Shown: one piece after another, positions 10,365 to 24,721 of the stretch
Layout: every line of letters starts with the position of its first letter
Numbering within the stretch: position 1 is the stretch's first letter
Assembly: GCA_003220345.1 (NCBI GenBank)
Contig: QHSC01000101.1
Location: 5,693 to 69,692, forward strand
Direction of reading: 5' to 3'
Length of the DNA: 64,000 nt
Source: Candidatus Rokuibacteriota bacterium
GTDB lineage: Bacteria > Methylomirabilota > Methylomirabilia > Rokubacteriales > CSP1-6
Notes under the pieces: model-generated
Told to the model about the DNA's origin: nothing
Databases searched by the model: none
Seen by the model: the letters and a program-made list of their open reading frames with translations, nothing else
Translations under genes and position numbers: made by a program

Positions 10365-11093
10365 CTAGATCTGCTTCCAGAGGAACTCGGCCTTGCCCAT
10401 GCGCGAGCGGATGGAGGAGGCGTAGCGCTGGTAGGCGCGGCTGGTGACGCCGGGATGCCATTGAGACGGCCGGGGGAGGGAGGCCGCGACGAGTGCCGCC
10501 TCGTCCTCGCCGAGATCGGCCGCGGGCTTGCCAAAATACCTCTCGGCGGCGGGGCCCACGCCGTAGATGCCCGGCCCCAGCTCGATCACGTTGAGATAAA
10601 GCTCGAGAATGCGCCGCTTGGACAGCGAGCGCTCGAGCTGCCAGGTCAGGATCGCCTCCTTCACCTTGCGGAGCGGGTTGCGGCTCGATGAGAGCCACAG
10701 ATTCTTTGCGAGCTGCTGGGTGATGGTGGAGGCTCCGCGCGCCGCCTCCTTCTTGTCGTCGAGGGCCTCCTCGAAGGCGCTTCGGATCTCGCCCCAGTCG
10801 AAGCCGCCATGGGAGAAGAAGTTGATGTCTTCGGCCACGAGGACCGCGCGCTTGAGGTGAGGTGAGATCGCCGCGTAGGACGTGAAGCGAAAGGCGACGC
10901 GCGGCTGGCGTCCTGCCTGGTGCTCTCGTTCCTTGTAGCGCTCGATGAAGGCCGTGGTCACGGGGGCGCGAGTCCCGAGCGCCTTGACGTCGGGCCACGT
11001 CACGGTCTCCCACGTGAGCCAGACGACGAGGGCGAGGACGCTCAGGAGGAGGAGTCGGCGCCAGAGCCGTCCTAAGAGGGAGCGCCGAGCCAC
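10365..11093 (-). CDS. mtgA: monofunctional biosynthetic peptidoglycan transglycosylase
   Basis: GT51 motifs EDINFFSHGGFDW, GASTITQQLAKNL and RKVKEAILTWQLE. A GTG start at 11093 gives 242 aa with an N-terminal TM helix. The longer ORF to 11339 overlaps the upstream gene. Confidence 0.9.
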   Translation of the reverse strand: MARRSLLGRLWRRLLLLSVLALVVWLTWETVTWPDVKALGTRAPVTTAFIERYKEREHQAGRQPRVAFRFTSYAAISPHLKRAVLVAEDINFFSHGGFDWGEIRSAFEEALDDKKEAARGASTITQQLAKNLWLSSSRNPLRKVKEAILTWQLERSLSKRRILELYLNVIELGPGIYGVGPAAERYFGKPAADLGEDEAALVAASLPRPSQWHPGVTSRAYQRYASSIRSRMGKAEFLWKQI

Positions 11094-11095
11094 CG

Positions 11096-11620
11096 TCAGG
11101 CTGGTGTGACTCCGACGCGGTGTCGCTGGGCGAGGGCCTGGTAGCCCTTGGGGTTCATGGCCACCCAGCGCTCGGCGGGCGTCCCCGCGAGCGGGCCCCT
11201 GACCTTGCAGGGCGAGCCCAGCGCGAGCACGCCGTCCGGGATCTCGGTGCCGGGCGTCACGAGCGAGCCCGCCCCGATCATGGCGCGCACGCCGATCTTC
11301 ACGCCGTCGAGCACCGTCGAGCCGTTGCCCACCAGGCATTCCTCGCCGAGGGTGGCCTGATGGATCAGGCAGAGATGGCCAACCGTCGAGCCCGCGCCGA
11401 TGTCAGAGCCGCCGGCCGGGGTGACATGGATGACCGAGCAGTCCTGCACGTTGGCGCCGCGACGGATGACGATGGGCGAGAAGTCGGCGCGGACGACGGC
11501 GTTGTACCACACCGAGGCATTCTCCTCGACGGTGACGTCGCCGATGAGGACGGCGGTGGGGGCGATGAACGCGGTCGGGTGCACGCGCGGCGACTTGCCT
11601 TCGAATGCGAAGAGCGGCAT
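11096..11620 (-). CDS. gamma-carbonic-anhydrase-like / hexapeptide-repeat (LbH) protein
   Basis: 174 aa starting MPLFAFEGKSPRVHPTAFIAPTAVLIGDV, with left-handed beta-helix hexapeptide repeats. ATG (cat on the + strand) at 11618-11620. The rest of the 624-aa ORF to 12970 is antisense to the PKS gene and is rejected. Confidence 0.85.
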   Translation of the reverse strand: MPLFAFEGKSPRVHPTAFIAPTAVLIGDVTVEENASVWYNAVVRADFSPIVIRRGANVQDCSVIHVTPAGGSDIGAGSTVGHLCLIHQATLGEECLVGNGSTVLDGVKIGVRAMIGAGSLVTPGTEIPDGVLALGSPCKVRGPLAGTPAERWVAMNPKGYQALAQRHRVGVTPA

Positions 11621-11701: not shown

Positions 11702-12727
11702 ATGGGGACGCCGAGAATCGTCGCGGTGTCGACCGCCACTCCCCGCCACCGCTTCGACCAGGCCACCCTCCTCCGCATGGCCGGCTACGAGGATTCCCGC
11801 CGCGCGGGCTTCTTCGCCAACAGTGAGATCGACGGCCGCCATCTCTACCTCGACCCCGAGACGTTCACCCCGCGAGAGAGCGTGGACGAGCTGAGCGAGC
11901 GCTTCCGCCGCGGCAGCATTGAGCTGGGAGCGGAGGCCGTTCGGCGCGTCGTGGAGCGGGCGGGATGGGATCTCGCCGACGTCGACTTCCTCGCCACCAC
12001 GACGTGCACGGGCCGGCTCTGCCCGAGCCTCGACGCGCACCTCATCGCCGAGCTCGGCCTCAAGGACGGCATCCAGCGCGTCCACGTGGGGGACACGGGC
12101 TGCGCGAGCGCCATGGTCGCCCTCCAGCTGGCGCACAACCACGTTCGCGCCTTCCCGCGGCACCGCGCGGTCGTGGTGGCGGTGGAGATCTGCTCCACGG
12201 CCTACTTCCTCGACGACCGGCTCGAGAGCGCGGTGGCCCATGCCATCTTCGCCGATGGCGCAGGGGCCATGGCCATCGCCGGGGAGGGGGATGGCCCCGT
12301 CATCGTCGGCCATCAGAGCCTCTTCCGCTCCGAGCACCTGGGGGCCATGGGCTTCGAGTTTCCCGGAGGGCGGCCGCGCGTCGTGCTCTCCAAGGACGTG
12401 CGGCGCATCGGCGCCGCCATGATGAAGGAGATGGCCGACCTCCTCATGGACTCGCAGGGGCTCAAGAAGGAGGACGTGCGTCACTTCGTGCTGCATTCGG
12501 CGGGCCGCCGGGTGATCGAGCAGGCGCGCCGGCTCCTCGACCTCGACGAACCGCAGATCGCCCACTCGCGGCACGTGCTGCGCCATCTCGGCAACATGTC
12601 CTCGGCCACCGTGGTCTTCGTGCTCGAAGAGACGCTGCGCTCGGGCCAGCCCGTGCCCGGCGACTGGGGGCTCATGATCGCGCTCGGCCCGGGGTTTGCG
12701 GCCGAAGGCGCGCTGCTCCGCTGGTAA
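11702..12727 (+). CDS. type III polyketide synthase (chalcone/stilbene synthase family)
   Basis: 341 aa. Cys-His-Asn triad contexts are GDTGCASAM (Cys codon 12101-12103), VLHSAGRRV and LGNMSSATV. C-terminal GPGF motif is present. Confidence 0.9.
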   Translation: MGTPRIVAVSTATPRHRFDQATLLRMAGYEDSRRAGFFANSEIDGRHLYLDPETFTPRESVDELSERFRRGSIELGAEAVRRVVERAGWDLADVDFLATTTCTGRLCPSLDAHLIAELGLKDGIQRVHVGDTGCASAMVALQLAHNHVRAFPRHRAVVVAVEICSTAYFLDDRLESAVAHAIFADGAGAMAIAGEGDGPVIVGHQSLFRSEHLGAMGFEFPGGRPRVVLSKDVRRIGAAMMKEMADLLMDSQGLKKEDVRHFVLHSAGRRVIEQARRLLDLDEPQIAHSRHVLRHLGNMSSATVVFVLEETLRSGQPVPGDWGLMIALGPGFAAEGALLRW

Positions 12728-12863
12728 GGCGCCGTGCCGATTCGCTTCGCCATGCTTCGTACTCGGTCGGCGGCGACCCTCAACGTACGAACAAGTACGC
12801 CTCGGGCCGCCGCCTCCCTCGAGCCTCGCCTGGCTCGCGACTCGGCCCGGCGCCGCAGGTGAT

Positions 12864-13580
12864 ATGAGCTTGGCGCTCATGGAACGCGCGCACGACGCCG
12901 TCGAGATGCTCGACCGACCCGCGCCCTTCTTGGACCTCTCGCAGAACCTGGAGGACATCGCGCGCTTCAATGCCTTCTTCGGCGGAACACGGCTGACCCT
13001 GCGTCACGTGAAGGGTCTCGTCGCGGACCTTCCGAGGGACCGCAGCCTGACGTTGCTCGACGTGGGCACCGGAGGCGGTGACATCCCGCGCGCGCTCGTT
13101 CGGTGGGCACGTCGTGCCGGGCGCTCCATCCGGATCTTCGCCCTGGATCGCGAGGCGGAGACGCTTCGCGCCGCCGCCGACCGCATGGCCGGCTATCCCG
13201 AGATCACGCTGATCCAGGGCGACGCGCTCGCGCTCCCCGTGCGCCCGCGCTCGGTGGACGTGGCCATCTCCGCCCTCGTGCTCCATCACCTGACGCCCGC
13301 CGAGGCCGTGGCCTCGCTTGCCGAGATGGATCGCGTCGCCCGGCGAGGGCTCGTAGCCAATGATCTCTTCCGGAGCCGGGTGGCGCATGCCGTGGTCTGG
13401 CTGACCACGCGGCTCCTCGCGAAGAGCCGCATGTCCCGACACGACGGGCCGATGTCCGTCCGGCGCGCCTACACGTGCCGCGAGGTCGAATCCCTCGCCC
13501 GGCGCGCCGCCCTCGTGAGCGTGCGCGTGCATCGCTACGCGTGGGCCTTCCGTCTCTGCGCGGTCAGGGCCAGGACATGA
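12864..13580 (+). CDS. SAM-dependent methyltransferase
   Basis: SAM motif I LLDVGTGGGDIP and motif post-I FALDRE are present. ATG 12864 (alternative 12879). The ORF part upstream of 12864 has no coding character. Confidence 0.8.
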   Translation: MSLALMERAHDAVEMLDRPAPFLDLSQNLEDIARFNAFFGGTRLTLRHVKGLVADLPRDRSLTLLDVGTGGGDIPRALVRWARRAGRSIRIFALDREAETLRAAADRMAGYPEITLIQGDALALPVRPRSVDVAISALVLHHLTPAEAVASLAEMDRVARRGLVANDLFRSRVAHAVVWLTTRLLAKSRMSRHDGPMSVRRAYTCREVESLARRAALVSVRVHRYAWAFRLCAVRART

Positions 13581-14794
13581 GTGCACGCGACGTGATCGTG
13601 GTGGGGGCGGGACCAGCAGGCGTGGCCGCGGCGATTCTCCTCGTCGAGCGCGGCTGGAGCGTGACGCTGCTCGACAAGGCCGCCTTCCCCCGTCCCAAGA
13701 TCTGCGGCGAGTACCTGTCGCCGGAGTCCGCGCGCATTCTCGACCGGCTGGGCGCCCTCAAGGCGGTGGATGAGGCGGGCGGTCAGCCGCTGCGCGGCAT
13801 GAAGATCGTGGCGCCCGACGGCACGGTGATCGTCGGCTCCTATCCCACGACGGGGCCCTGGCGCAGTCACCGGGACTACGCGCTGGCCATTCCTCGCGAG
13901 CGGCTGGACCACATCCTCGTCGAGCGGGCCCGCAGCCTGCCCGTGGACGTGCGAGAGCGCCACCGGGTCACGGAGCTCGTGAGGGAGGGCAGGGAGGTCA
14001 CGGGCGTCCACGCCCAGGATGCCGACGGCCGGGCGCTCGAGCTACGGGCCCGGCTCGTGATCGGCGCCGACGGGCGCGCCTCCGCCGTCGCCGCTGCCCT
14101 GGGATTGCTGCGTCCGCACCCCCTCCGGCGCATGGCCCTCATCCAGCACGTGGCCGGGCTCCACGGCTTCGACGAGCGCGGAGAGATCTTCGTCGATCCG
14201 CCCGACTACGCCATCCTCAATCCTGTGGCTCCCGGCCTCGTGAATCTGGGCCTCGTCGTCCCCCTGGCCCATGCCCGGCCCTTCGCGGGCCGGCTCGAGA
14301 CTTTCTTCCACGCGCGGCTGCGGCAAATGCCGCGGCTCGCCTCCCGGCTCGAGGGGATGAAGCCCGTGGGAAGCATGCAGGCCATGGGCCCGCTCGCCTA
14401 CCGTGTCAAGGCGCCAGGGGCGGGCGGCGTCATGCTGGTCGGGGACGCGGCGGGCTTCTATGACCCCTTCACGGGCGAGGGCATCTTCACCGCGCTTCGA
14501 TCCGCCGAGCTCCTGGCCGAGGTCGCGCATGCCGCCCTCGATCGCGGCACGCTCGGGGCCACGGCGCTCCGGCCCTATGTGGACGCCCGCCGCGAATGCT
14601 TCCGCGGCAAGGAGCGGCTCACCCGCGCGCTCCAGTTCGTGATCGCGCGGCGCCGGCTCGCCAACGCCGCCGCCCACGCTCTCCTGCGCCGTCCTGCTCT
14701 CCTCGATCTGCTCATGGGCGTCCTCGGGGACTTCGTCCCCCCGGCCGCTCTTGTCCGCGCCGCGCTGCCCGGCGGGCGATACCGGCCGGGTTGA
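13577..14794 (+). CDS. FAD-dependent oxidoreductase, geranylgeranyl-reductase/flavoprotein-hydroxylase family
   Basis: ATG 13577 overlaps the methyltransferase stop (ATGA). GxGxxG motif VIVVGAGPAGVAAA, CGEYLSP, and the distal LVGDAAGFYDPFTGEGI motif are present. Confidence 0.88.
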   Translation: MSARDVIVVGAGPAGVAAAILLVERGWSVTLLDKAAFPRPKICGEYLSPESARILDRLGALKAVDEAGGQPLRGMKIVAPDGTVIVGSYPTTGPWRSHRDYALAIPRERLDHILVERARSLPVDVRERHRVTELVREGREVTGVHAQDADGRALELRARLVIGADGRASAVAAALGLLRPHPLRRMALIQHVAGLHGFDERGEIFVDPPDYAILNPVAPGLVNLGLVVPLAHARPFAGRLETFFHARLRQMPRLASRLEGMKPVGSMQAMGPLAYRVKAPGAGGVMLVGDAAGFYDPFTGEGIFTALRSAELLAEVAHAALDRGTLGATALRPYVDARRECFRGKERLTRALQFVIARRRLANAAAHALLRRPALLDLLMGVLGDFVPPAALVRAALPGGRYRPG

Positions 14795-17548: not shown

Positions 17549-19282
17549 ATGAGTCTCGGGAGGTGGTGGCGCGCGAGACGGGCCCGCCTGCGCCAGCTCT
17601 GGGTGGTGGGCGCCATCGCCGCCTGCGCGGTGACGGCGGGCTCGGCCATGGGCTACTTCGAGTCGCTCCAGGTCCGGGCGCTCGACCTCCTGATGTATCT
17701 GCAGAGCCCGCGCCAGCCCGGCACCATCGTCATCGTGGCCGTGGACGACGCGGCCTTCGACGCTCTCGGCCGGCGCCAGCCCATTCCCCGCGACTACCTG
17801 GCCCGCGTGCTGCGGGGGGTCGGGCGCGCGGGCGCCGCCACCGTGGGGTTCGACATCTCCTTTCGCACGGCGGGGCCCGCCGCGGAAGACGCCGCGCTCG
17901 CCCGGGCCATCGCGGAGTTCACGGAGCAGGGCTCGCGCCGGCTCGTGGTGGCGAGCGCGGCGCTTCCCGAACGGGGCCCGCTCGCCGATTCGTCGCTCGC
18001 AAAGCTGATCGTGCTGAGCGCGCCTGAAGTCCCCGTGGACGGCGACGCCATCGTCCGGCGCGTCGTGGTCAAGGTGGGTCGGGATGTCGCCTTTGGCGCC
18101 GCCGTCACCCAGTCCGAGGCCTCCGAGCCTGGTCAGGTTCTCCCCATCAACTTCGTCGGCCCCTCCGGGAGCTTCCTGACCATCCCCTCCGACGCGGTCG
18201 CCGCCATCGGTGACGCCGGCGCGGACCTTGCCGGAGACAATCCGCTGCGCGGGCGCATCGTGCTCGTGGGCGGCACCTTCCAGGACGGTCGCGATTTTCA
18301 CATGACGCCCTTCGGCCGGATGGCCGGGGTCGAGATCCAGGCGAATATCGCCCAGATGCTGCTGACCCAGAGCTTCGTCCGGCCCGCGGGGTGGATCGCC
18401 GTGCTCGGCGTCCAGCTCATGGCCGTGCTCCTCGCCGGGCTGGTGATGACGGCGATGCGGCCGCTCTGGGGCACGGCGGTCTGCCTGGCCGCCGCCGCGA
18501 TCCTGGGCATTCCCGCGAGCCTGGCCGCGCTGAGACGTGGCTATCTGGTGGACTTTCTTCTTCCTGTCCTCGCCGTGGCCCTTCTCGGGCTGGGTGCCGA
18601 TCTCCTGGCGCGGCGGCGGCTCCGCGAGGCCCTCGGCCGCTACGTCAGTCCCGAGGTCGCCGCGCGCGTCGAGCGCAGACCCGAGGAGCTGGCGGGCGAG
18701 CGACGCGAGGTCTCCATCCTCTTCTCCGACCTGCGGGGCTTCACCACGCTCTCCGAGCGAATGGCGCCCGAACAGATGGCCGCGCGACTGACCGAGTACT
18801 TCGATGCCATGACGGCGGCCATCTTCGAGCATCGGGGCATGGTGAACGATTTCATCGGCGACGCGATCATGGCCGTGTTCGGCGCTCCCCTCGACGATCC
18901 GGATCACGCTCGCCACGCCGTCGAGAGCGCGCTCGGCATGCAGCGGGCCCTCGCGGGCCTCAACCGGCGCTGGGAGTCCGAGGGACTGCCGCCGCTCCGC
19001 ATGGGGCTCGGCGTGCACACCGGCGAGGTGTTCGCGGGAAATGTCGGCCGGGAGGGCAAGGTCAAGTACGCTGTGGTGGGGGACACGGTCAACCTCGCGT
19101 CCCGTGTCGAAGGCTTGAACAAGGAGCTCGGCACCATCATGCTGGTGACGGAGTCGGCCTATCGCAAGGCAGCCCTGGACGTGGGCGTGACCGACCGCGG
19201 GCTGGTGCAGGTCAAGGGACGACAGGAGCCCGTGCGGATCTACGAGGTCGCGCCGCCGGAGCCCGACGAGGGAGAGTGCTGA
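17549..19282 (+). CDS. CHASE2 sensor domain-containing class III adenylate/guanylate cyclase
   Basis: 577 aa. It has an N-terminal TM helix, a periplasmic CHASE2-like region (IVAVDDAAFDALG...), 3 TM helices, and a cyclase domain (EVSILFSDLRGFT...DFIGDAIMAVFGAP...VGDTVNLASRVE). Confidence 0.88.
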   Translation: MSLGRWWRARRARLRQLWVVGAIAACAVTAGSAMGYFESLQVRALDLLMYLQSPRQPGTIVIVAVDDAAFDALGRRQPIPRDYLARVLRGVGRAGAATVGFDISFRTAGPAAEDAALARAIAEFTEQGSRRLVVASAALPERGPLADSSLAKLIVLSAPEVPVDGDAIVRRVVVKVGRDVAFGAAVTQSEASEPGQVLPINFVGPSGSFLTIPSDAVAAIGDAGADLAGDNPLRGRIVLVGGTFQDGRDFHMTPFGRMAGVEIQANIAQMLLTQSFVRPAGWIAVLGVQLMAVLLAGLVMTAMRPLWGTAVCLAAAAILGIPASLAALRRGYLVDFLLPVLAVALLGLGADLLARRRLREALGRYVSPEVAARVERRPEELAGERREVSILFSDLRGFTTLSERMAPEQMAARLTEYFDAMTAAIFEHRGMVNDFIGDAIMAVFGAPLDDPDHARHAVESALGMQRALAGLNRRWESEGLPPLRMGLGVHTGEVFAGNVGREGKVKYAVVGDTVNLASRVEGLNKELGTIMLVTESAYRKAALDVGVTDRGLVQVKGRQEPVRIYEVAPPEPDEGEC

Positions 19283-19284
19283 GC

Positions 19285-20244
19285 ATGGTCAAGATTCTTG
19301 CGGTACGGCTTGGGACGGTTCTGCTCGGCTGGACGCTGGTCCTCCCGACGGTGGCGATGGCCGCGGATCCCGTGGCGGTGGTCACCGAGATCCGCGCGGA
19401 GGGCGGCCAGGTCGAGGTGAAGCGGGTGGGGGAGTCCGCGTGGGGGGCGGCCCAGCCCCTGCAGGCGCTGCGCGCGGGTGACCAGATCCGCGCGGGCGGC
19501 GCCGCGCGCGCGGCCGTCGTCTTCACGGGTGGGCGGGGAGCGCAATCGGTCTCCTCGGCCAACTCGCCGTTCACGGTGCAGCCGCCTGCTGCCGCCGCCT
19601 CCGGCGACAAGCTGCGCGGTCTCGTGGGCGGGGTCACGGACTTTCTCTCGGGGAAGCAGAAGGATCTGGCGTATCTCCCGCTCTCGGTGCGCAACGTGCG
19701 CCCGCCGCGCGTGGTCCAGCTCGCGCCGCGGGACACCAAGATCCTCCCCGGCGCGGTGGCCTTCGAGTGGAGCGGCTCGGACACCCTGCGCTACCGCGTC
19801 CGCGTGCTCTCCGCTCAGGGGCTGCTCTGGGAGCAGGCGGATCTTCCGCGACGTCCGGTTGCCTATCCCGCCTCCGCGCCCGCGCTCCAGCCCGGCGTCC
19901 GCTATCTCTGGCAGCTCGAGACCACGGGGCAGCCGGTCCAGCAGACCGAGTTCGAGATCCTGGCGCCCGGCGATGCCGCGCGCGTGCGGGAGTCGCTCGG
20001 CATCCTCGTCCCCGCCTCGCTCCCCGGCTATCCCGACTCGAGCGTGGCCATCATGCGCGCCGGCTATCTCCTCCGCGACGGGCTCTACGCCGAGGCCCGG
20101 CGCGAGCTCCTTGCCGCCCAGGCCAAGGATCCCGACGAGCCGACCCTGCATCTGCTGCTGGGGCAGGTCTACGAGACCACCGGCCTGACCGACCTCGCCC
20201 AGCGGGAGTACGTGGACGCCCGGGACCTCTCGGCCCGTCGGTAA
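19285..20244 (+). CDS. secreted FecR-like / DUF928-like / TPR-like protein
   Basis: ATG 19285 is 2 nt after the cyclase stop. Signal peptide ...LPTVAMAADP. FecR-type pattern GQVEVKRVGESAWGAAQPLQALRAGDQIRAGGAARAAVVF. The middle region has F.W...Y.V.V...L.PG..Y.W, reminiscent of DUF928. The C-terminal helical repeat is YAEARRELLAAQAKDPDEPTLHLLLGQVYE. Confidence 0.65.
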   Translation: MVKILAVRLGTVLLGWTLVLPTVAMAADPVAVVTEIRAEGGQVEVKRVGESAWGAAQPLQALRAGDQIRAGGAARAAVVFTGGRGAQSVSSANSPFTVQPPAAAASGDKLRGLVGGVTDFLSGKQKDLAYLPLSVRNVRPPRVVQLAPRDTKILPGAVAFEWSGSDTLRYRVRVLSAQGLLWEQADLPRRPVAYPASAPALQPGVRYLWQLETTGQPVQQTEFEILAPGDAARVRESLGILVPASLPGYPDSSVAIMRAGYLLRDGLYAEARRELLAAQAKDPDEPTLHLLLGQVYETTGLTDLAQREYVDARDLSARR

Positions 20245-20320
20245 ATACCCGGGCTTCCAAGCCAGTTTCCCGCTCTCGCCAGGTTTGACACGACCGTGTC
20301 CGTCCGGATACGGTCGTCAC

Positions 20321-22747
20321 ATGGCTTGTTCAGACCTGAAGCGTCCTGCGCTCCTTGCGGCCCTCGCCCTTGCCCTCGTGCTCGCGCCGGCGCTCGCCCA
20401 CGCGCAGGCCAAGCCGCGAGCCGAGCGGCCGACGTATACCCTCGGCGAGAAGTGGGTCCGCAACGACGGCCTCTACGAGCTGATCCGCATCGAGAAGGAC
20501 GTCTACGTCTTCTCCACGAGGCCGCGATGGGAGATCCACCTGACCAAGGATCTCGGAATCGCCCGCGCGCAGCGGGGGGACAGCGTCCTCGATTTCAACC
20601 CGCCCATCGAGATGAAGTGGCCACTCGAGGTCGGCAAGTCCGGTTACCAGAGCAGCTTCTGGGAGACGACGAGCACCGCCGGGCGCTCGTTCCCCGTCTC
20701 GATCAACTGGAGGGTCGTCGACTACGAAGATGTCCAGGTGTTCGCGGGAACCTTCAAGGCCTTCCACATCGTCCTCACGTTTACCAATCAGGGTGGCCGC
20801 AGCTTCGAAAATCATCTCTGGTACTCGCCGGAGGCGCGCCAGTACATCAAGGCGGAGGGATCCTCCGGTATTCTCCGCTTCCAGCTGGTCGGCCTCGATC
20901 ACCCCACCGCCGGTCCGATACAGTTCGCGCTCGAGGGCATGCCCGAGAAGGAGCGCGTGGGCATCGATACCCTCACGCTGGGGGGCAAGGTCACCGCGGG
21001 CAAGGGTCTGGCCTCGGTCGTCGTCACCCTGAACGGCGCCGAAGTGGCGAGCAAGAGCGAGCGGCGCGCCCCCAAGCCGGAGATCGCGCTGGACGTGCCG
21101 ATCAAGCTGCGCGAGGGCAAGAACGTCGTCATCGTGACTGCCGTGGATGCCGAGGGCACCACCCGGCAGGAGGCCCGCGGCGTCTTCTATCTGCCGCCTC
21201 GAGGCCCGGGCGTGGCGGGTGTGCCGCCCGGTCCCGGTCCGCCGATCGGCGCCCCCGTTCCACCTCCGGGCGGCCCATCTCTCCCCCAGCCGCCGCCTCA
21301 AGTCGCCTCACCCGCGCCCGCTCCTCCTCCAAAGGCGGTTCCGCTCCAGGTGACGCTCTCCTCGCCGGTCGATCAGGCGCGCTTCGACAACGAGACGGTG
21401 GCCCTGGCCGGGCTCGCCTCGGGGGGCAAGAGCGTGCGCCGCGTGGCCGTCTCCCTCAACGGGGTCGAGGTCGCGCGCCAGGAGCCCGGCACGACCTCGG
21501 CGGCCGTGAACCTGCCCATCAAGCTTCGCGAGGGCCAGAACACCGTGGTCATCACGGCCACGGATGCCGACGGCGTCACCCAGCAGGAGGTGCGGACCGT
21601 CTACTACGAGAAGGCCGCGCCGCTGACCGTGTCGTTCCGGTACCCCGAAGACCGCTCCCGCGTGACGGAGGAATCGAGCGTGGTGGCGGCGCTGGTGACC
21701 TCGAGCAAGGGCGTGGCCAAGGTCACGGTGGCCCTCAACGGCATCCAGGTCCACCAGCAGAGCGACAAGGCGCCGCCGCGCTCCATCGCGGTCAGCGCGC
21801 CCGTCACCTTCCGCGAAGGCGCCAATGCCATCGTGGTGACGGCCACGGAGCCCGACGGCACCATCAAGCAAGAGCTGCGCACCGTCATCTACGACAAGCC
21901 CACGCCGGCGGCCGCGGCGCCCGCCGCGCCGCCGCCCGTGAAGACGGCGAGCGACCGGTGGGCCGTCGTCATCGGCGTGGGACGCTACCAGAGCACGGAC
22001 ATCCCCTCGCTCCGCTACAGCGTGGCGGACGCCGAGGCCCTGTACCAGGTCCTCATCGGCCCCGGGGGCTTCCGGAAGGAGCACGTGCTCCTCCTGACCG
22101 ACAAGAGCGAGAAGCCGCCGACCCTGCGCAACATCAAATGGGCCCTCGGCACTTTCCTCGCGCGCTCGGCCAAGAAGGACGACACGGTGCTGATTTTCTT
22201 CGCGGGTCACGGCGCTCCCGAAGTGGACCAGCGGGGCGTCGAGCGCGACGGGCTGGCCAAGTACCTGATCCCCGCCGACGCCGACCCGGACGATCTGTAC
22301 TCGACGGCGCTGCCCATGGACGAGATGCAGACCATCTTCAGCCGGGTGGAGGCCGAGCGCATGGTCGTCTTCCTCGACGCCTGCTACAGCGGCGCGGCGG
22401 GGGGGCGCACCTTCAGCTCCAAGCGCACGCGGGCCAGCAACCTGGACGACCAGTTCCTCGAGCGGCTGACGCGCTCCAAGGGGCGCGCCATCATCACGGC
22501 CTCGCGCCCCTCCGAAGTGTCGATCGAGCTGCCGGAGCTCGGGCACGGCATCTTCACCTACTACCTCGTGGAAGGGCTCAAGGGCGCGGCCGACCTCAAC
22601 AAGGACGGCATTGTCACCGTCCAGGAGCTCTACGAGTACCTCGAGCAGCAGGTGGCCACGAAGTCGCGCTCGGTCGGAGCCAACCAGCATCCCGTCATGA
22701 AAGGCGAGATGGAAGGCGCCCTTCCCCTGGTCAAGGTGGCGCGCTAG
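20321..22747 (+). CDS. secreted multidomain caspase-family (peptidase C14) protein with three Ig-like repeats
   Basis: Signal peptide ALALALVLAPALAHAQA. About 170-aa unknown beta-rich domain, three ~90-aa repeats and a Pro-rich linker. The C-terminal C14 domain has His in FFAGHGAP (codon 22208-22210) and Cys in LDACYSG (codon 22382-22384). An alternative TTG start is at 20285. Confidence 0.85.
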   Translation: MACSDLKRPALLAALALALVLAPALAHAQAKPRAERPTYTLGEKWVRNDGLYELIRIEKDVYVFSTRPRWEIHLTKDLGIARAQRGDSVLDFNPPIEMKWPLEVGKSGYQSSFWETTSTAGRSFPVSINWRVVDYEDVQVFAGTFKAFHIVLTFTNQGGRSFENHLWYSPEARQYIKAEGSSGILRFQLVGLDHPTAGPIQFALEGMPEKERVGIDTLTLGGKVTAGKGLASVVVTLNGAEVASKSERRAPKPEIALDVPIKLREGKNVVIVTAVDAEGTTRQEARGVFYLPPRGPGVAGVPPGPGPPIGAPVPPPGGPSLPQPPPQVASPAPAPPPKAVPLQVTLSSPVDQARFDNETVALAGLASGGKSVRRVAVSLNGVEVARQEPGTTSAAVNLPIKLREGQNTVVITATDADGVTQQEVRTVYYEKAAPLTVSFRYPEDRSRVTEESSVVAALVTSSKGVAKVTVALNGIQVHQQSDKAPPRSIAVSAPVTFREGANAIVVTATEPDGTIKQELRTVIYDKPTPAAAAPAAPPPVKTASDRWAVVIGVGRYQSTDIPSLRYSVADAEALYQVLIGPGGFRKEHVLLLTDKSEKPPTLRNIKWALGTFLARSAKKDDTVLIFFAGHGAPEVDQRGVERDGLAKYLIPADADPDDLYSTALPMDEMQTIFSRVEAERMVVFLDACYSGAAGGRTFSSKRTRASNLDDQFLERLTRSKGRAIITASRPSEVSIELPELGHGIFTYYLVEGLKGAADLNKDGIVTVQELYEYLEQQVATKSRSVGANQHPVMKGEMEGALPLVKVAR
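20918..21898 (+). repeat. three tandem ~90-aa coding repeats (20918-21190, 21344-21613, 21614-21898), with a proline-rich linker (21191-21343) between the first and second
   Basis: Recurrent block (T/S/A)LNG.(E/Q)V......(V/L)(P/N).PIKLREG.N.V.(I/V)TA.D.(E/D)G.T.QE.R.V.Y is seen three times at protein level. It is still recognisable at DNA level (ccgatcaagctgcgcgagggcaag / cccatcaagcttcgcgagggccag). Confidence 0.85.
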
Positions 22748-24213
22748 GGGCTCTCGGTTTTCGTGGTCGGCTGGGAGCGCGGGGGCACGGCGGCCGCCCG
22801 ACGACGGCGGGGCGGCGGCGCGGCCTGCTCCTTCGCCAGCTCGGGCATGATCGACTCGATGAGGAGCAGGCTCGCCTCGCGCAGCGGCCGACCGATATGG
22901 TCGCGGATCCATCGCGCATCCCACCACTCGACCGGCGTCACCGAGATCCCTCCGATGAGCACCTCGAAGTGCAGGTGATCGCCCATGGCGAGGCCGGAGT
23001 CTCCGGACCGCCCGAGCTCCTGCTCCTGCCGCACCTGATCGCCTTCCTTGACCCCGATGGTCGAGAGATGCGCGTAGAGCGTCTGCAGTCCCAGCCCGTG
23101 ATCCACGATGACGGTATTGCCGTAGATCGATAGCGGCCCCGCGAAGACGACCACGCCCGCGTTCGCCGCGGGCACCGGCCCGTGGCGCACGGCGGCGAGG
23201 TCGTAGCCGAAATGGACCTGAGTGTCGACCTCGCGGCCGTGGTAGCGGTACGTGCGCGTCTCCGCGAAGTTGGAGAAGACCTTGGTGTTGCGCGGCTGGA
23301 GGAAGACGCCGTCCCAGAGCGGCCGCGGCTGCGTCTTGGCCGCCAGCGTGCGCTTGGTCTCCTCGGCCTGCTTGCGACGGTCGCGGTTGACGGTGAGAAA
23401 GGCCTCGAGGAGCTGGTCGCGCGGGATCACCCCGCCGCGCTCGGGCAGGAGCTCGGGAAGCTTGCGCTCCAGGAAGTCGTCCTTCACGTCGATCACGTCG
23501 CTCCTGAAGCGCCGGCCCTTGACCTCGACGGCGACGTTGCGCGTGGTGGTGTTGCCCGCCTCGTCCTGGGCGATGGCGGCGATGGGCGTCCCCACCTCGT
23601 AGTTCCAGGGGAGGGCGACGATGGCGACGTGGAGATTGGAGTCGGCCGGCCCCGCGGGATACGCCCGGAACGACAGGGGACCGACGCCCACCGCCACTCG
23701 GGAGGCGCCTCGAGAGCGCACGACCACGAGCCCGCCGCCGCCCTTGGCCCAGTAGCGCGTGGCCGAGACGACCTCGACGGAGGGCGGCGTGAAGTCGAGG
23801 GTGACGGGTATGGAGGCCACGGGCTTGTCGTCCACGCGAATGGGCCGCCAGAAGCCGTCGCGGGCGCGCACCTCGAGCACGGCGCCGCCTTCGCGCAGGC
23901 CCAGGGTGCCGCCGTTGATCACGAGCTCGATGCGCTGCGCACTCGACTCCGGGCCGGTGAAGGCCTGCTTGGTGAGGACCACGCGCGCGGGGCCCTGCTT
24001 GAGGCGGATCTCCACCGAGCGGACGCCGCCGCGCACCGCATGGAGATCCACGGCGAGCGGTGTCTTGACCCCGATCCAGCGCGGGACGGGCTCGAGGATC
24101 GCGCGGACGCCCGGAACGGACTGCCGCCACGCGAAGTATCCGAGGACGGCGACGACGAGGAAGGTGGGAATGACGATGATGCTGAACCAGAACCGGACGG
24201 TGGAGCGAGCCAT
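22744..24213 (-). CDS. M23 family (LytM-type) metallopeptidase, membrane-anchored
   Basis: 489 aa with an N-terminal TM helix (FWFSIIVIPTFLVVAVLGYFAW). C-terminal M23 motifs HFGYDLA, GNTVIVDHGLGLQTLYAHL and GDSGLAMGDHLHFEV are present. Confidence 0.88.
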   Translation of the reverse strand: MARSTVRFWFSIIVIPTFLVVAVLGYFAWRQSVPGVRAILEPVPRWIGVKTPLAVDLHAVRGGVRSVEIRLKQGPARVVLTKQAFTGPESSAQRIELVINGGTLGLREGGAVLEVRARDGFWRPIRVDDKPVASIPVTLDFTPPSVEVVSATRYWAKGGGGLVVVRSRGASRVAVGVGPLSFRAYPAGPADSNLHVAIVALPWNYEVGTPIAAIAQDEAGNTTTRNVAVEVKGRRFRSDVIDVKDDFLERKLPELLPERGGVIPRDQLLEAFLTVNRDRRKQAEETKRTLAAKTQPRPLWDGVFLQPRNTKVFSNFAETRTYRYHGREVDTQVHFGYDLAAVRHGPVPAANAGVVVFAGPLSIYGNTVIVDHGLGLQTLYAHLSTIGVKEGDQVRQEQELGRSGDSGLAMGDHLHFEVLIGGISVTPVEWWDARWIRDHIGRPLREASLLLIESIMPELAKEQAAPPPRRRRAAAVPPRSQPTTKTESP

Positions 24214-24298
24214 GCGGCAAGGATAGCAAGGTCCTCTCGCCGGGCTGCCAGGAATGTGCTGTAGTGCGAGCCGAGGGTTGAGTCAGGAGACGAGAGCC

Positions 24299-24721
24299 AT
24301 GATCGCCATGAGGCTGGCCGCGATAGGTTTTCTCGCGAGCGCCGCCGCGCATCTCCTTTCGTTCACGTCGTGGGCGCGGTGGCTCGGCGAGCGGACCATC
24401 TGGACGCTCGAGGTGGGCGTGTTCCTCCTCGCCCTCTGGATGATCGCGCGGCTCCGGCGAACCGCGGCCATCCGGCGGCAATGGGGACGCGTGGCCGTCC
24501 ACGACTGGCGAGGTCTCGTGGCCGCGGTGCCTCCGGGCCTGCGCTTCCTCGTGATCGGCGCCGCCCTCTACGCCTGGATGAACTTCGTCCTCTGCCTGAT
24601 GGTCGAGGAGGACGTCGTGACGCGCGCGGCGATCACGCTGCGCATGGCCACCGGCCACCTCCTCTTCTTCTATCTCGTCCCGCTCGTGTTCTTCGGCTGG
24701 GTCGACCCCGCCCGTCCTTGA
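24299..24721 (+). CDS. hypothetical membrane protein (4 predicted TM helices)
   Basis: ATG 24299 is preceded by AGGAGA. The ORF is hydrophobic and I recognise no family. Confidence 0.5.
   Translation: MIAMRLAAIGFLASAAAHLLSFTSWARWLGERTIWTLEVGVFLLALWMIARLRRTAAIRRQWGRVAVHDWRGLVAAVPPGLRFLVIGAALYAWMNFVLCLMVEEDVVTRAAITLRMATGHLLFFYLVPLVFFGWVDPARP

Follow-up and report, generated by a model that had tools for sequence, protein, structure and literature searches.

A CHASE2 receptor cyclase, an MtxA-family protein and a secreted caspase encoded side by side in Methylomirabilota: a candidate periplasmic sensing unit

What does a secreted caspase-type protease do beside a membrane receptor cyclase, and what does the receptor sense? 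These questions are raised by a three-gene locus within a 64,000-nt stretch of DNA (the window; coordinates are positions of the window unless another locus is named), which has a G+C content of ~70% and whose close matches are contigs of Candidatus Methylomirabilota (Rokubacteria). Gene 1 encodes a receptor with a CHASE2 sensor domain and a class III nucleotide cyclase domain, gene 2 a secreted protein of the MtxA family and gene 3 a secreted multidomain caspase; one of the close matches, L008 (DASQAK010000214), carries a gene 2 that is 96% identical. As an earlier note on this DNA had described, the three genes are co-directional on the + strand and separated by gaps of 2 nt (genes 1 and 2) and 76 nt (genes 2 and 3). 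Since hundreds of metagenomic and genomic contigs hold full-length homologues, the genes were accepted as real. The CHASE2 domain was defined in 2003, and we know of no ligand reported for it since. The window locus is a caspase-bearing variant of a known, uncharacterised gene pair that encodes an MtxA-type protein and a CHASE2 cyclase. The reading set out below, to which we give an even chance, is that this pair forms a periplasmic sensing unit to which dedicated secreted caspases have been recruited, and that these act on the MtxA-like protein. The whole account rests on comparative genomics and structure prediction.

Gene 2 was analysed through its family. In Pfam the protein itself gave only sub-threshold TPR matches and a match to DUF928 (PF06051) with E = 0.084 and 13.1 bits against a curated cut-off of 26. 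An exhaustive search returned 654 representative clusters of full-length relatives (~310–330 aa, down to ~25% identity). An AlphaFold2 model was built with an alignment of 56 relatives (A1), which are also the basis of the gene 2 counts given below out of 56. The model (predicted local distance difference test, pLDDT, 92.3; predicted TM-score, pTM, 0.88) comprises a signal peptide, a beta domain (residues 31–89), a helix and linker, an FN3/Ig-like domain (144–225) and a TPR-like domain (228–317); the signal-peptide-like N-terminal segment was likewise found by hydropathy, and the last domain bears out the TPR-like helices that the earlier note had claimed. The top PDB match of the model (Foldseek) was the C-terminal domain of MtxA (4z29) with E = 1.4e-7 and a TM-score of 0.69, normalised to the target. 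The gene 2 family profile matched the MtxA chain 4z29_A with E = 3.1e-11 over profile positions 26–308 and chain residues 19–295, and after removal of the TPR part it still matched MtxA with E = 1.2e-5 over the N-terminal domain and linker. By profile and model comparison, gene 2 is a homologue, at ~18% identity, of MtxA, the 'magnetotaxis' protein of Magnetospirillum. A GGAGAG Shine-Dalgarno-like motif lies within the end of gene 1, 8 nt ahead of the gene 2 ATG.

MtxA (MGR_0208 of Magnetospirillum gryphiswaldense) is a secreted protein of ~313 aa with the same architecture as gene 2 (PMC4439547). In magnetotactic bacteria its gene is followed by a conserved gene for a CHASE2 and adenylate-cyclase protein; the pair was described in 2007 (Richter) and 2015 (Davidov) for Magnetospirillum and Magnetococcus, and no function was found (PMC4439547). 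Both the homology of gene 2 to MtxA and the publication of the pair had been missed in the earlier note.

The domains of gene 2 were assigned as follows. MtxA_N (PF24045; DUF7354 in the Pfam copy used) was matched by 7 of the 56 relatives (best E = 4.3e-8) and by gene 2 itself not at E ≤ 1; from these family matches, the N-terminal domain corresponds to MtxA_N. The FN3/Ig and TPR part is equivalent to the crystallised C-terminal domain of MtxA and, roughly, to Pfam DUF928: positions 75–181 of the latter align, below threshold, to gene 2 residues 193–306, 17 of the 56 relatives match it (best E = 3.1e-7), a 57%-identical orthologue (P0336) scores above the cut-off (29.2 bits), and the protein of locus L060 covers DUF928 positions 14–178. 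The DUF928-like call of the earlier note therefore holds at the family level; the pattern F.W...Y.V.V...L.PG..Y.W on which it had been founded (residues 160–209) is an FN3/Ig signature with an L-x-P-G-x-x-Y tyrosine corner. Between the two halves lies Arg136, which is invariant in all 91 aligned family members. The surrounding residues 131–140 have a mean pLDDT of 69, the lowest in the mature protein, and in MtxA the counterpart of Arg136 falls in 'TVRRS', just ahead of the trypsin-resistant fragment; it was trypsin cleavage in the MtxA linker that yielded the fragment which was crystallised (PMC4439547). Conservation and model confidence together make Arg136 a candidate protease site or contact residue.

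Gene 1 matched CHASE2 (PF05226) with E = 4.9e-36 (125 bits, cut-off 26.3) and Guanylate_cyc (PF00211) with E = 6.6e-27 (94.7 bits) in Pfam, in agreement with the earlier domain call. By hydropathy, a first transmembrane helix (~17–37), a periplasmic CHASE2 domain, three transmembrane helices (~279–355) and a cytoplasmic cyclase domain are predicted. This fits the classical plan of CHASE2 receptors, with one transmembrane helix, a periplasmic domain, three transmembrane helices and a cytoplasmic output. Among solved structures, the cyclase domain is nearest to Synechocystis Cya2 (2w01, E = 8e-40), and the alignment to it shows the catalytic set to be complete, with the two Asp for metal binding and the Asn and Arg of the transition state. 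Across orthologues, the six catalytic and specificity positions read DDD(T/A)NR in 68 of 71, the substrate-specifying pair being Asp/Thr in 43 and Asp/Ala, as in gene 1, in 25. In class III cyclases, Lys/Asp marks adenylate cyclases and Glu/Cys or Glu/Gly guanylate cyclases; the pair of gene 1 matches neither the canonical Lys/Asp(Thr) for ATP nor Glu/Cys(Gly) for GTP. The acidic specificity residue probably speaks against a canonical adenylate cyclase, and because the pair is Asp/Ala the nucleotide is probably not made by the canonical adenylate-cyclase mechanism. A second, divergent class III cyclase domain was seen a few kb downstream of the module in L018 (9136–9774) and L019 (12469–13110); it shows ~31% identity, carries Gln/Thr at the specificity positions and has His in place of the catalytic Asn.

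Linkage of genes 1 and 2 was counted in 54 non-redundant Methylomirabilota loci, made up of 50 species-level genome contigs and long metagenome contigs; the genome-contig scan used an alignment of close gene 2 relatives and returned Methylomirabilota only. In 51 of the 54, the gene immediately before the MtxA-like one encodes a CHASE2 cyclase, and the two genes usually overlap by 4 nt; of the other three MtxA-like genes, one sits at the very start of its contig, one is a fragmentary match and one is an orphan paralogue (L056). The orphan (L056, 10001–10885) has ample upstream DNA and no CHASE2 neighbour and is convergent with a gene for a 747-aa all-TPR protein; its contig is binned as Verrucomicrobiia and has a Methylomirabilota-like composition (71.5% GC).

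For the caspase, counting was restricted to the 27 loci in which each flank extends for at least 2.6 kb. Adjacent co-directional caspase genes were found in 13 of these: four have one caspase, placed after the MtxA-like gene like that of the window, and nine have caspases upstream, in 1–3 tandem copies, 0–86 nt from the cyclase start. All 31 caspase domains of these loci fall within the span of the module, and none was found in 520 kb of flanking DNA. Of the trio described in the earlier note, the cyclase/MtxA-like pair is near-universal, whereas the caspase is present in about half of the loci and the trio is not obligate. A metagenome scan with a caspase-domain alignment gave 80 loci, 25 of which carry the cyclase/MtxA-like pair. 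In a neighbour-joining tree of the catalytic domains, four groups were resolved: downstream caspases (including that of the window), cyclase-proximal upstream caspases, distal upstream caspases and a large group of solitary ones. Because they form clades of their own in this tree, apart from the solitary paralogues, the linked caspases are taken to be old, dedicated lineages within a multi-copy family.

Gene 3 is laid out as a signal peptide (~1–30), a DUF3108-like domain (~31–200), three Ig-like repeats (~205–535) and a Peptidase_C14 domain (546–794). The C14 domain was matched with E = 3.3e-18 (66.6 bits), and Ig-like families were also matched (Pfam). The N-terminal segment resembles a signal peptide by hydropathy, as it does in gene 2, so that the earlier signal-peptide calls were reproduced for both. 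DUF3108_like was matched by the N-terminal domain in 14 of 24 orthologues (best E = 1.3e-6), and a profile search of solved structures with this domain gave only matches of E > 0.2. The intact His/Cys dyad that the earlier note had seen was verified by alignment to metacaspases: His630, Cys688 and two acidic Asp residues are invariant in 19 orthologues (mean identity 80%). These two acidic residues, the Asp of SVADA and the Asp of LDACYSG (two residues before the Cys), occupy S1-pocket positions typical of Arg/Lys-specific metacaspases, after TbMCA2, and the caspase is predicted to be Arg/Lys-specific (C14B type). A canonical EF-hand-like loop in the C-terminal part of the C14 domain is near-invariant across the 19 orthologues and may place this presumed periplasmic caspase under Ca2+ control.

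Upstream of gene 3, a promoter-like element was recognised by comparison of loci. In 14 of the 17 loci that have the window's gene order, the form TTGAC(A/G)-N18-(T/C)AnnnT stands between the genes for the MtxA-like protein and the caspase, with differing spacers. A generic promoter and terminator scan returned no promoter and one terminator-like site, below chance expectation. From the conserved element, gene 3 probably has its own promoter, possibly with a leaderless transcript. Two further features of this region were recorded. A 12-bp hairpin (20290–20317; minimum free energy z = -2.25) sits right in front of the start codon of gene 3, where it shares sequence with the promoter-like spacer; it is retained in close relatives and missing from more distant loci of the same gene order. 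In the close relatives L008 (~11030–11280) and L071 (~1440–1660), a repetitive insertion of ~200 nt relative to the window lies between the conserved caspase ATG and the part coding for the signal peptide, which leaves the start codon uncertain in these two loci.

Table. Positions of the three genes and their principal features in the window, with the basis of each assignment
Feature	Position	Strand	Basis
Gene 1, membrane receptor cyclase, 577 aa	17549..19282	+	Open reading frame, Pfam, hydropathy, orthologue linkage
CHASE2 sensor domain of gene 1, residues 24-298, predicted periplasmic	17618..18442	+	Pfam PF05226, flanking hydrophobic segments
Class III cyclase catalytic domain of gene 1, residues 385-560	18701..19228	+	Pfam, alignment to 2w01
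Gene 2, secreted MtxA-family protein, 319 aa	19285..20244	+	AlphaFold2 model, Foldseek, family profile, start-codon context
N-terminal beta domain of gene 2, residues ~27-100	19363..19584	+	Model strands 31-89, alignment to MtxA N-terminus
Arg136 codon of gene 2, inter-domain linker	19690..19692	+	Family alignments, model confidence
FN3/Ig-like (~143-226) and TPR-like (~228-318) domains of gene 2	19711..20238	+	Foldseek 4z29, DUF928 matches
Promoter-like TTGACA-N18-TACGGT, ends 6 nt before gene 3 ATG	20285..20314	+	Comparison of loci
Gene 3, secreted multidomain caspase, 808 aa	20321..22747	+	Open reading frame, Pfam, hydropathy and repeats, orthologue DUF3108_like matches
Peptidase C14 domain of gene 3	21956..22702	+	Pfam, alignment to metacaspases 6w8s and 4f6o
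Catalytic His630 of gene 3	22208-22210	+	Aligned with metacaspase dyad
Catalytic Cys688 of gene 3	22382-22384	+	Aligned with metacaspase dyad
EF-hand-like loop DLNKDGIVTVQE, gene 3 residues 758-769, in C-terminal part of C14 domain	22592-22627	+	Weak Pfam EF-hand_5 match

Outside the phylum, the pair of CHASE2 cyclase and MtxA-like gene stands alone in three distant contexts, on contigs of 46–65% GC. In L142 (4896–14666, 52% GC) the pair is part of a longer row that encodes a TPR-CHAT protein with a signal peptide, the CHASE2 cyclase, the MtxA-like protein, a CHASE2-PP2C protein, an FHA protein and a Ser/Thr kinase with a cyclic-nucleotide-binding domain, the last being a candidate receiver of the cyclase product. 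L060 and L151 lack a CHASE2 gene, and the gene after the MtxA-like one encodes a TPR-CHAT protease that is secreted or lipoprotein-like; in L059 the MtxA-like gene adjoins the gene for a giant M10 metalloprotease. Homologous secreted proteins of ~190 aa with no family match are encoded near the MtxA-like genes of L059 (10119–10676) and L060 (11843–12430), which are unrelated contigs. On Nostocales plasmids, proteins of ~300 aa matched the hidden Markov model of the gene 2 family with E = 1e-20 to 1e-25 over its Ig and TPR half. These MtxA-C-terminal-like genes lie beside CHAT and two-partner-secretion genes in 7 of 7 plasmids inspected, which represent one orthologous block (L143–L149, for example NC_003276, 245–255 kb). 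The block adjoins the CyRepA1 replication gene and encodes an NB-ARC protein, a Ser/Thr kinase with TPR, the MtxA-C-terminal-like protein (with a Cys-rich N-terminus), a convergent CHAT protein, an FhaB-N-type protein and a ShlB/FhaC protein. No CHASE2 gene was found in the seven plasmid loci, the upstream Ser/Thr kinases were checked and lack the domain, and tblastn of the CHASE2 domain against plasmids gave no matches. The theme that the earlier note had put forward, with DUF928-type, CHASE2 and clan CD protease genes as neighbours, was recovered in outline in L142, L060, L151 and the Nostocales plasmids. Because MtxA-like genes recur both with CHASE2 cyclases and with CHAT or C14 genes, the MtxA-like protein is the common element, its gene standing with those for CHASE2 receptors and repeatedly with those for secreted proteases of two clan CD families.

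In the reading that we put at even chances, the CHASE2 receptor cyclase and the secreted MtxA-family protein would form the core two-gene periplasmic sensing unit. All sensor-side parts of the trio are predicted to be extracytoplasmic. The MtxA-like protein would most likely be a binding partner or co-receptor of CHASE2, in the way that periplasmic binding proteins gate sensor kinases, and regulated cyclic-nucleotide synthesis would be the output of the unit, presumably by a route other than the canonical adenylate-cyclase one. Some Methylomirabilota, that of the window among them, would have recruited between one and three dedicated secreted caspases to the unit, for which Arg/Lys specificity is predicted and modulation by Ca2+ is possible. 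These caspases would most likely act on the MtxA-like protein in the same compartment. With an Arg/Lys-specific protease predicted there, Arg136 in the exposed linker is the obvious candidate cleavage site, and a cut would turn a proteolytic event in the envelope into a changed cyclase activity, if the signal runs in this direction. The wider claim, that MtxA/DUF928-type proteins in general are protease-gated CHASE2 co-receptors in which a clan CD cut at the invariant-Arg linker frees or unmasks the Ig-TPR part and switches the cyclase, we regard as unlikely.

Several observations weigh against the sensing-unit reading. Deletion of mtxA in Magnetospirillum gave no phenotype (PMC4439547). Arg136 is equally invariant in relatives that have no neighbouring protease gene, so that its role may lie in the structure or in contact with CHASE2 and not in cleavage. 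As the loci share ancestry, few independent linkage events stand behind the counts. The remaining points at the same time favour a possible though less than probable alternative, in which only the cyclase/MtxA-like pair is functional and the caspase is an independent envelope protease, adjacent by inherited synteny. The caspase is absent from 14 of the 27 complete loci, and in L010 (11077–11240) and L011 (7478–7617) short remnants of a caspase C-terminus lie between the MtxA-like and M23 genes, indicating decay or deletion of the caspase gene there. The 76-nt gap and the promoter-like element suggest that gene 3 has no need of co-transcription with the pair. At least 17 well-flanked loci carry solitary caspases of the same architecture with 80–85% identity in the catalytic domain, among housekeeping genes (ABC ATPase, TtcA-like, thiolase, aminopeptidase N, short-chain dehydrogenase), and the linked copies fall into inherited clades, as expected from vertical descent. 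Inherited synteny alone fits less well with an adjacency that is kept in two gene orders, through tandem duplication and with the 0–86-nt gaps to the cyclase, with the lack of any caspase in the 520 kb of flanking DNA, and with the unrelated CHAT family taking the same position beside MtxA-like genes in distant lineages.

A further alternative, which we consider doubtful, keeps the contact between the two secreted proteins and changes its sense: the MtxA-like protein would hold or position a clan CD protease through its TPR/Ig surface, as an adaptor, inhibitor or chaperone, and CHASE2 would sense its occupancy, or the cyclase pathway would regulate the protease. MtxA-like/CHAT pairs do occur even where there is no CHASE2 gene (L060, L151 and the Nostocales plasmids), both TPR and Ig domains serve in protein binding, one face of MtxA is hydrophobic (PMC4439547), and the invariance of Arg136 outside protease-bearing loci suits a binding role as well. 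The caspase catalytic domain, however, is far better conserved than the MtxA-like protein, with 74–98% identity between loci in which the latter is only ~50% identical, a difference that hardly suggests interfaces evolving together.

An anti-phage or programmed-cell-death system, in which the cyclase product would activate a caspase effector (compare CBASS, Pycsar and Craspase), is very improbable and was rejected, as the caspase is secreted and the window locus encodes no nucleotide-binding effector. The cyclase domain does match Pycsar PycC models (best E = 1.7e-24), and gene 3 matches a PADLOC caspase model (E = 2.1e-16) and, below threshold, the NCBIfam model caspase_w_EACC1 (NF047832). 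The PycC matches, however, reflect generic class III cyclase homology, and the EACC1-caspase score of 119.5 bits is below the cut-off of 140, with no EACC1-type partner gene in the neighbourhood. The caspase has a signal peptide and no cyclic-nucleotide-binding domain and would be out of reach of a cytoplasmic nucleotide. Gene 2 has no PADLOC match, and the trio is surrounded by chromosomal housekeeping genes, with a TRAP transporter upstream and an Mrp antiporter, Mfd and ABC transporters elsewhere in the window, and no mobile or defence genes. Least credible of all is a FecR-type signal transducer or anti-sigma element that would relay an outer-membrane signal to transcription: the G.V.V...L..GD motif of the N-terminal domain, which we take to be FecR-like, and matches to FecR (PF04773) in 5 of 56 relatives (best E = 0.021) stand against a gene 2 protein with no FecR match in Pfam, no transmembrane anchor and no cytoplasmic anti-sigma domain, no adjacent extracytoplasmic-function sigma factor or TonB-dependent receptor gene in any locus examined, and a profile search of solved structures that found MtxA and no FecR entry, so that the FecR-type beta-sandwich is the one part of the earlier note's description left unconfirmed and a FecR relationship of this domain is not established.

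Around the trio, some further genes were noted. An M23 peptidase gene (22744–24213, - strand) is convergent with gene 3 and overlaps its stop by 4 nt, and it is followed by a 155-aa open reading frame (24254–24721, + strand) with no Pfam match; in the caspase-less loci L001 and L007, an M23 gene and a gene for ~150 aa come directly after the MtxA-like gene. Genes for a type III polyketide synthase, a probable methyltransferase and a FAD-dependent monooxygenase stand in a row at 11702–14794, and the same three are found upstream of the cyclase/MtxA-like pair in L001.

MtxA has a crystal structure and no reported function, and the locus gives a testable lead from it to the input of CHASE2. Far outside the magnetotactic bacteria, too, CHASE2 cyclases are encoded almost without exception beside MtxA-type proteins, so the 'magnetotaxis' label of MtxA is probably a misnomer; that gene 2 belongs to a non-magnetotactic host likewise argues against a role specific to magnetotaxis. 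Members of the window's clade of Methylomirabilota are, to our knowledge, uncultured. In several phyla the MtxA-like protein ties CHASE2 receptors to secreted proteases of the caspase fold, which leads to a concrete hypothesis in which CHASE2 has a protein as its co-receptor and proteolysis in the periplasm sets the state of that protein. If this is true, the input of CHASE2 would be a protein partner together with extracytoplasmic caspase-type proteolysis, and the Asp/Ala cyclase might make a non-canonical cyclic nucleotide. The locus also points to a little-studied extracytoplasmic role of bacterial caspase homologues.

Among known systems, MtxA itself compares as follows: gene 2 has the same length and the same four parts (signal peptide, N-terminal beta domain, linker, FN3/Ig and TPR part) and an adjacent CHASE2-cyclase gene. 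It differs in gene order, since mtxA precedes the cyclase gene in magnetotactic bacteria whereas the cyclase comes first in the window, in having a protease neighbour, none being reported for mtxA, and in its host, a non-magnetotactic member of the Methylomirabilota. Cya2 of Synechocystis, which we take to combine CHASE2 and a class III cyclase domain as gene 1 does, is a guanylyl cyclase with the specificity pair Glu/Gly (2w01), whereas gene 1 has Asp/Ala; we know of no partner genes for Cya2.

Orthocaspases and type I metacaspases (C14B) share with gene 3 the His/Cys dyad and the two acidic S1-pocket residues. Beyond these, gene 3 has a Sec signal peptide, a DUF3108-like domain, three Ig-like repeats and the embedded EF-hand-like loop, and it is a member of a multi-copy family specific to Methylomirabilota. 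A caspase-fold protease linked with a CHASE2 sensor, as in the window, is also known from fusion proteins, namely the metacaspase-CHASE2 protein of Trichodesmium (PMC3501461) and the EACC2-caspase-CHASE2 proteins (Kaur 2021; PMC8195603). In these the caspase is cytoplasmic and is the receptor output on the same polypeptide, whereas the window caspase is a separate secreted protein, predicted to reside on the same side of the membrane as the sensor, with a cyclase for output.

In the open-access literature no paper was found on a link between clan CD proteases, MtxA-like proteins and CHASE2, and on CHASE2 with CHAT or FecR, and on DUF928, nothing was found beyond PMC5587647, in which a DUF928 and CHASE2 neighbourhood is noted. 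The Nostocales clusters of DUF928-type and CHAT genes resemble the window locus in an Ig and TPR module homologous to the C-terminal half of gene 2 and in the adjacent clan CD protease; they differ in their distinct, Cys-rich N-terminal domain, in a protease of the CHAT rather than the C14 family and in the lack of a CHASE2 gene from the seven loci inspected. Gating of a sensor by a periplasmic partner is familiar from LuxP-LuxQ and TorT-TorS, and protease-triggered envelope signalling from DegS-RseA. With these the proposed unit would share an analogy of working, without homology, and here the output would be a cyclase and the protease one of the caspase fold.

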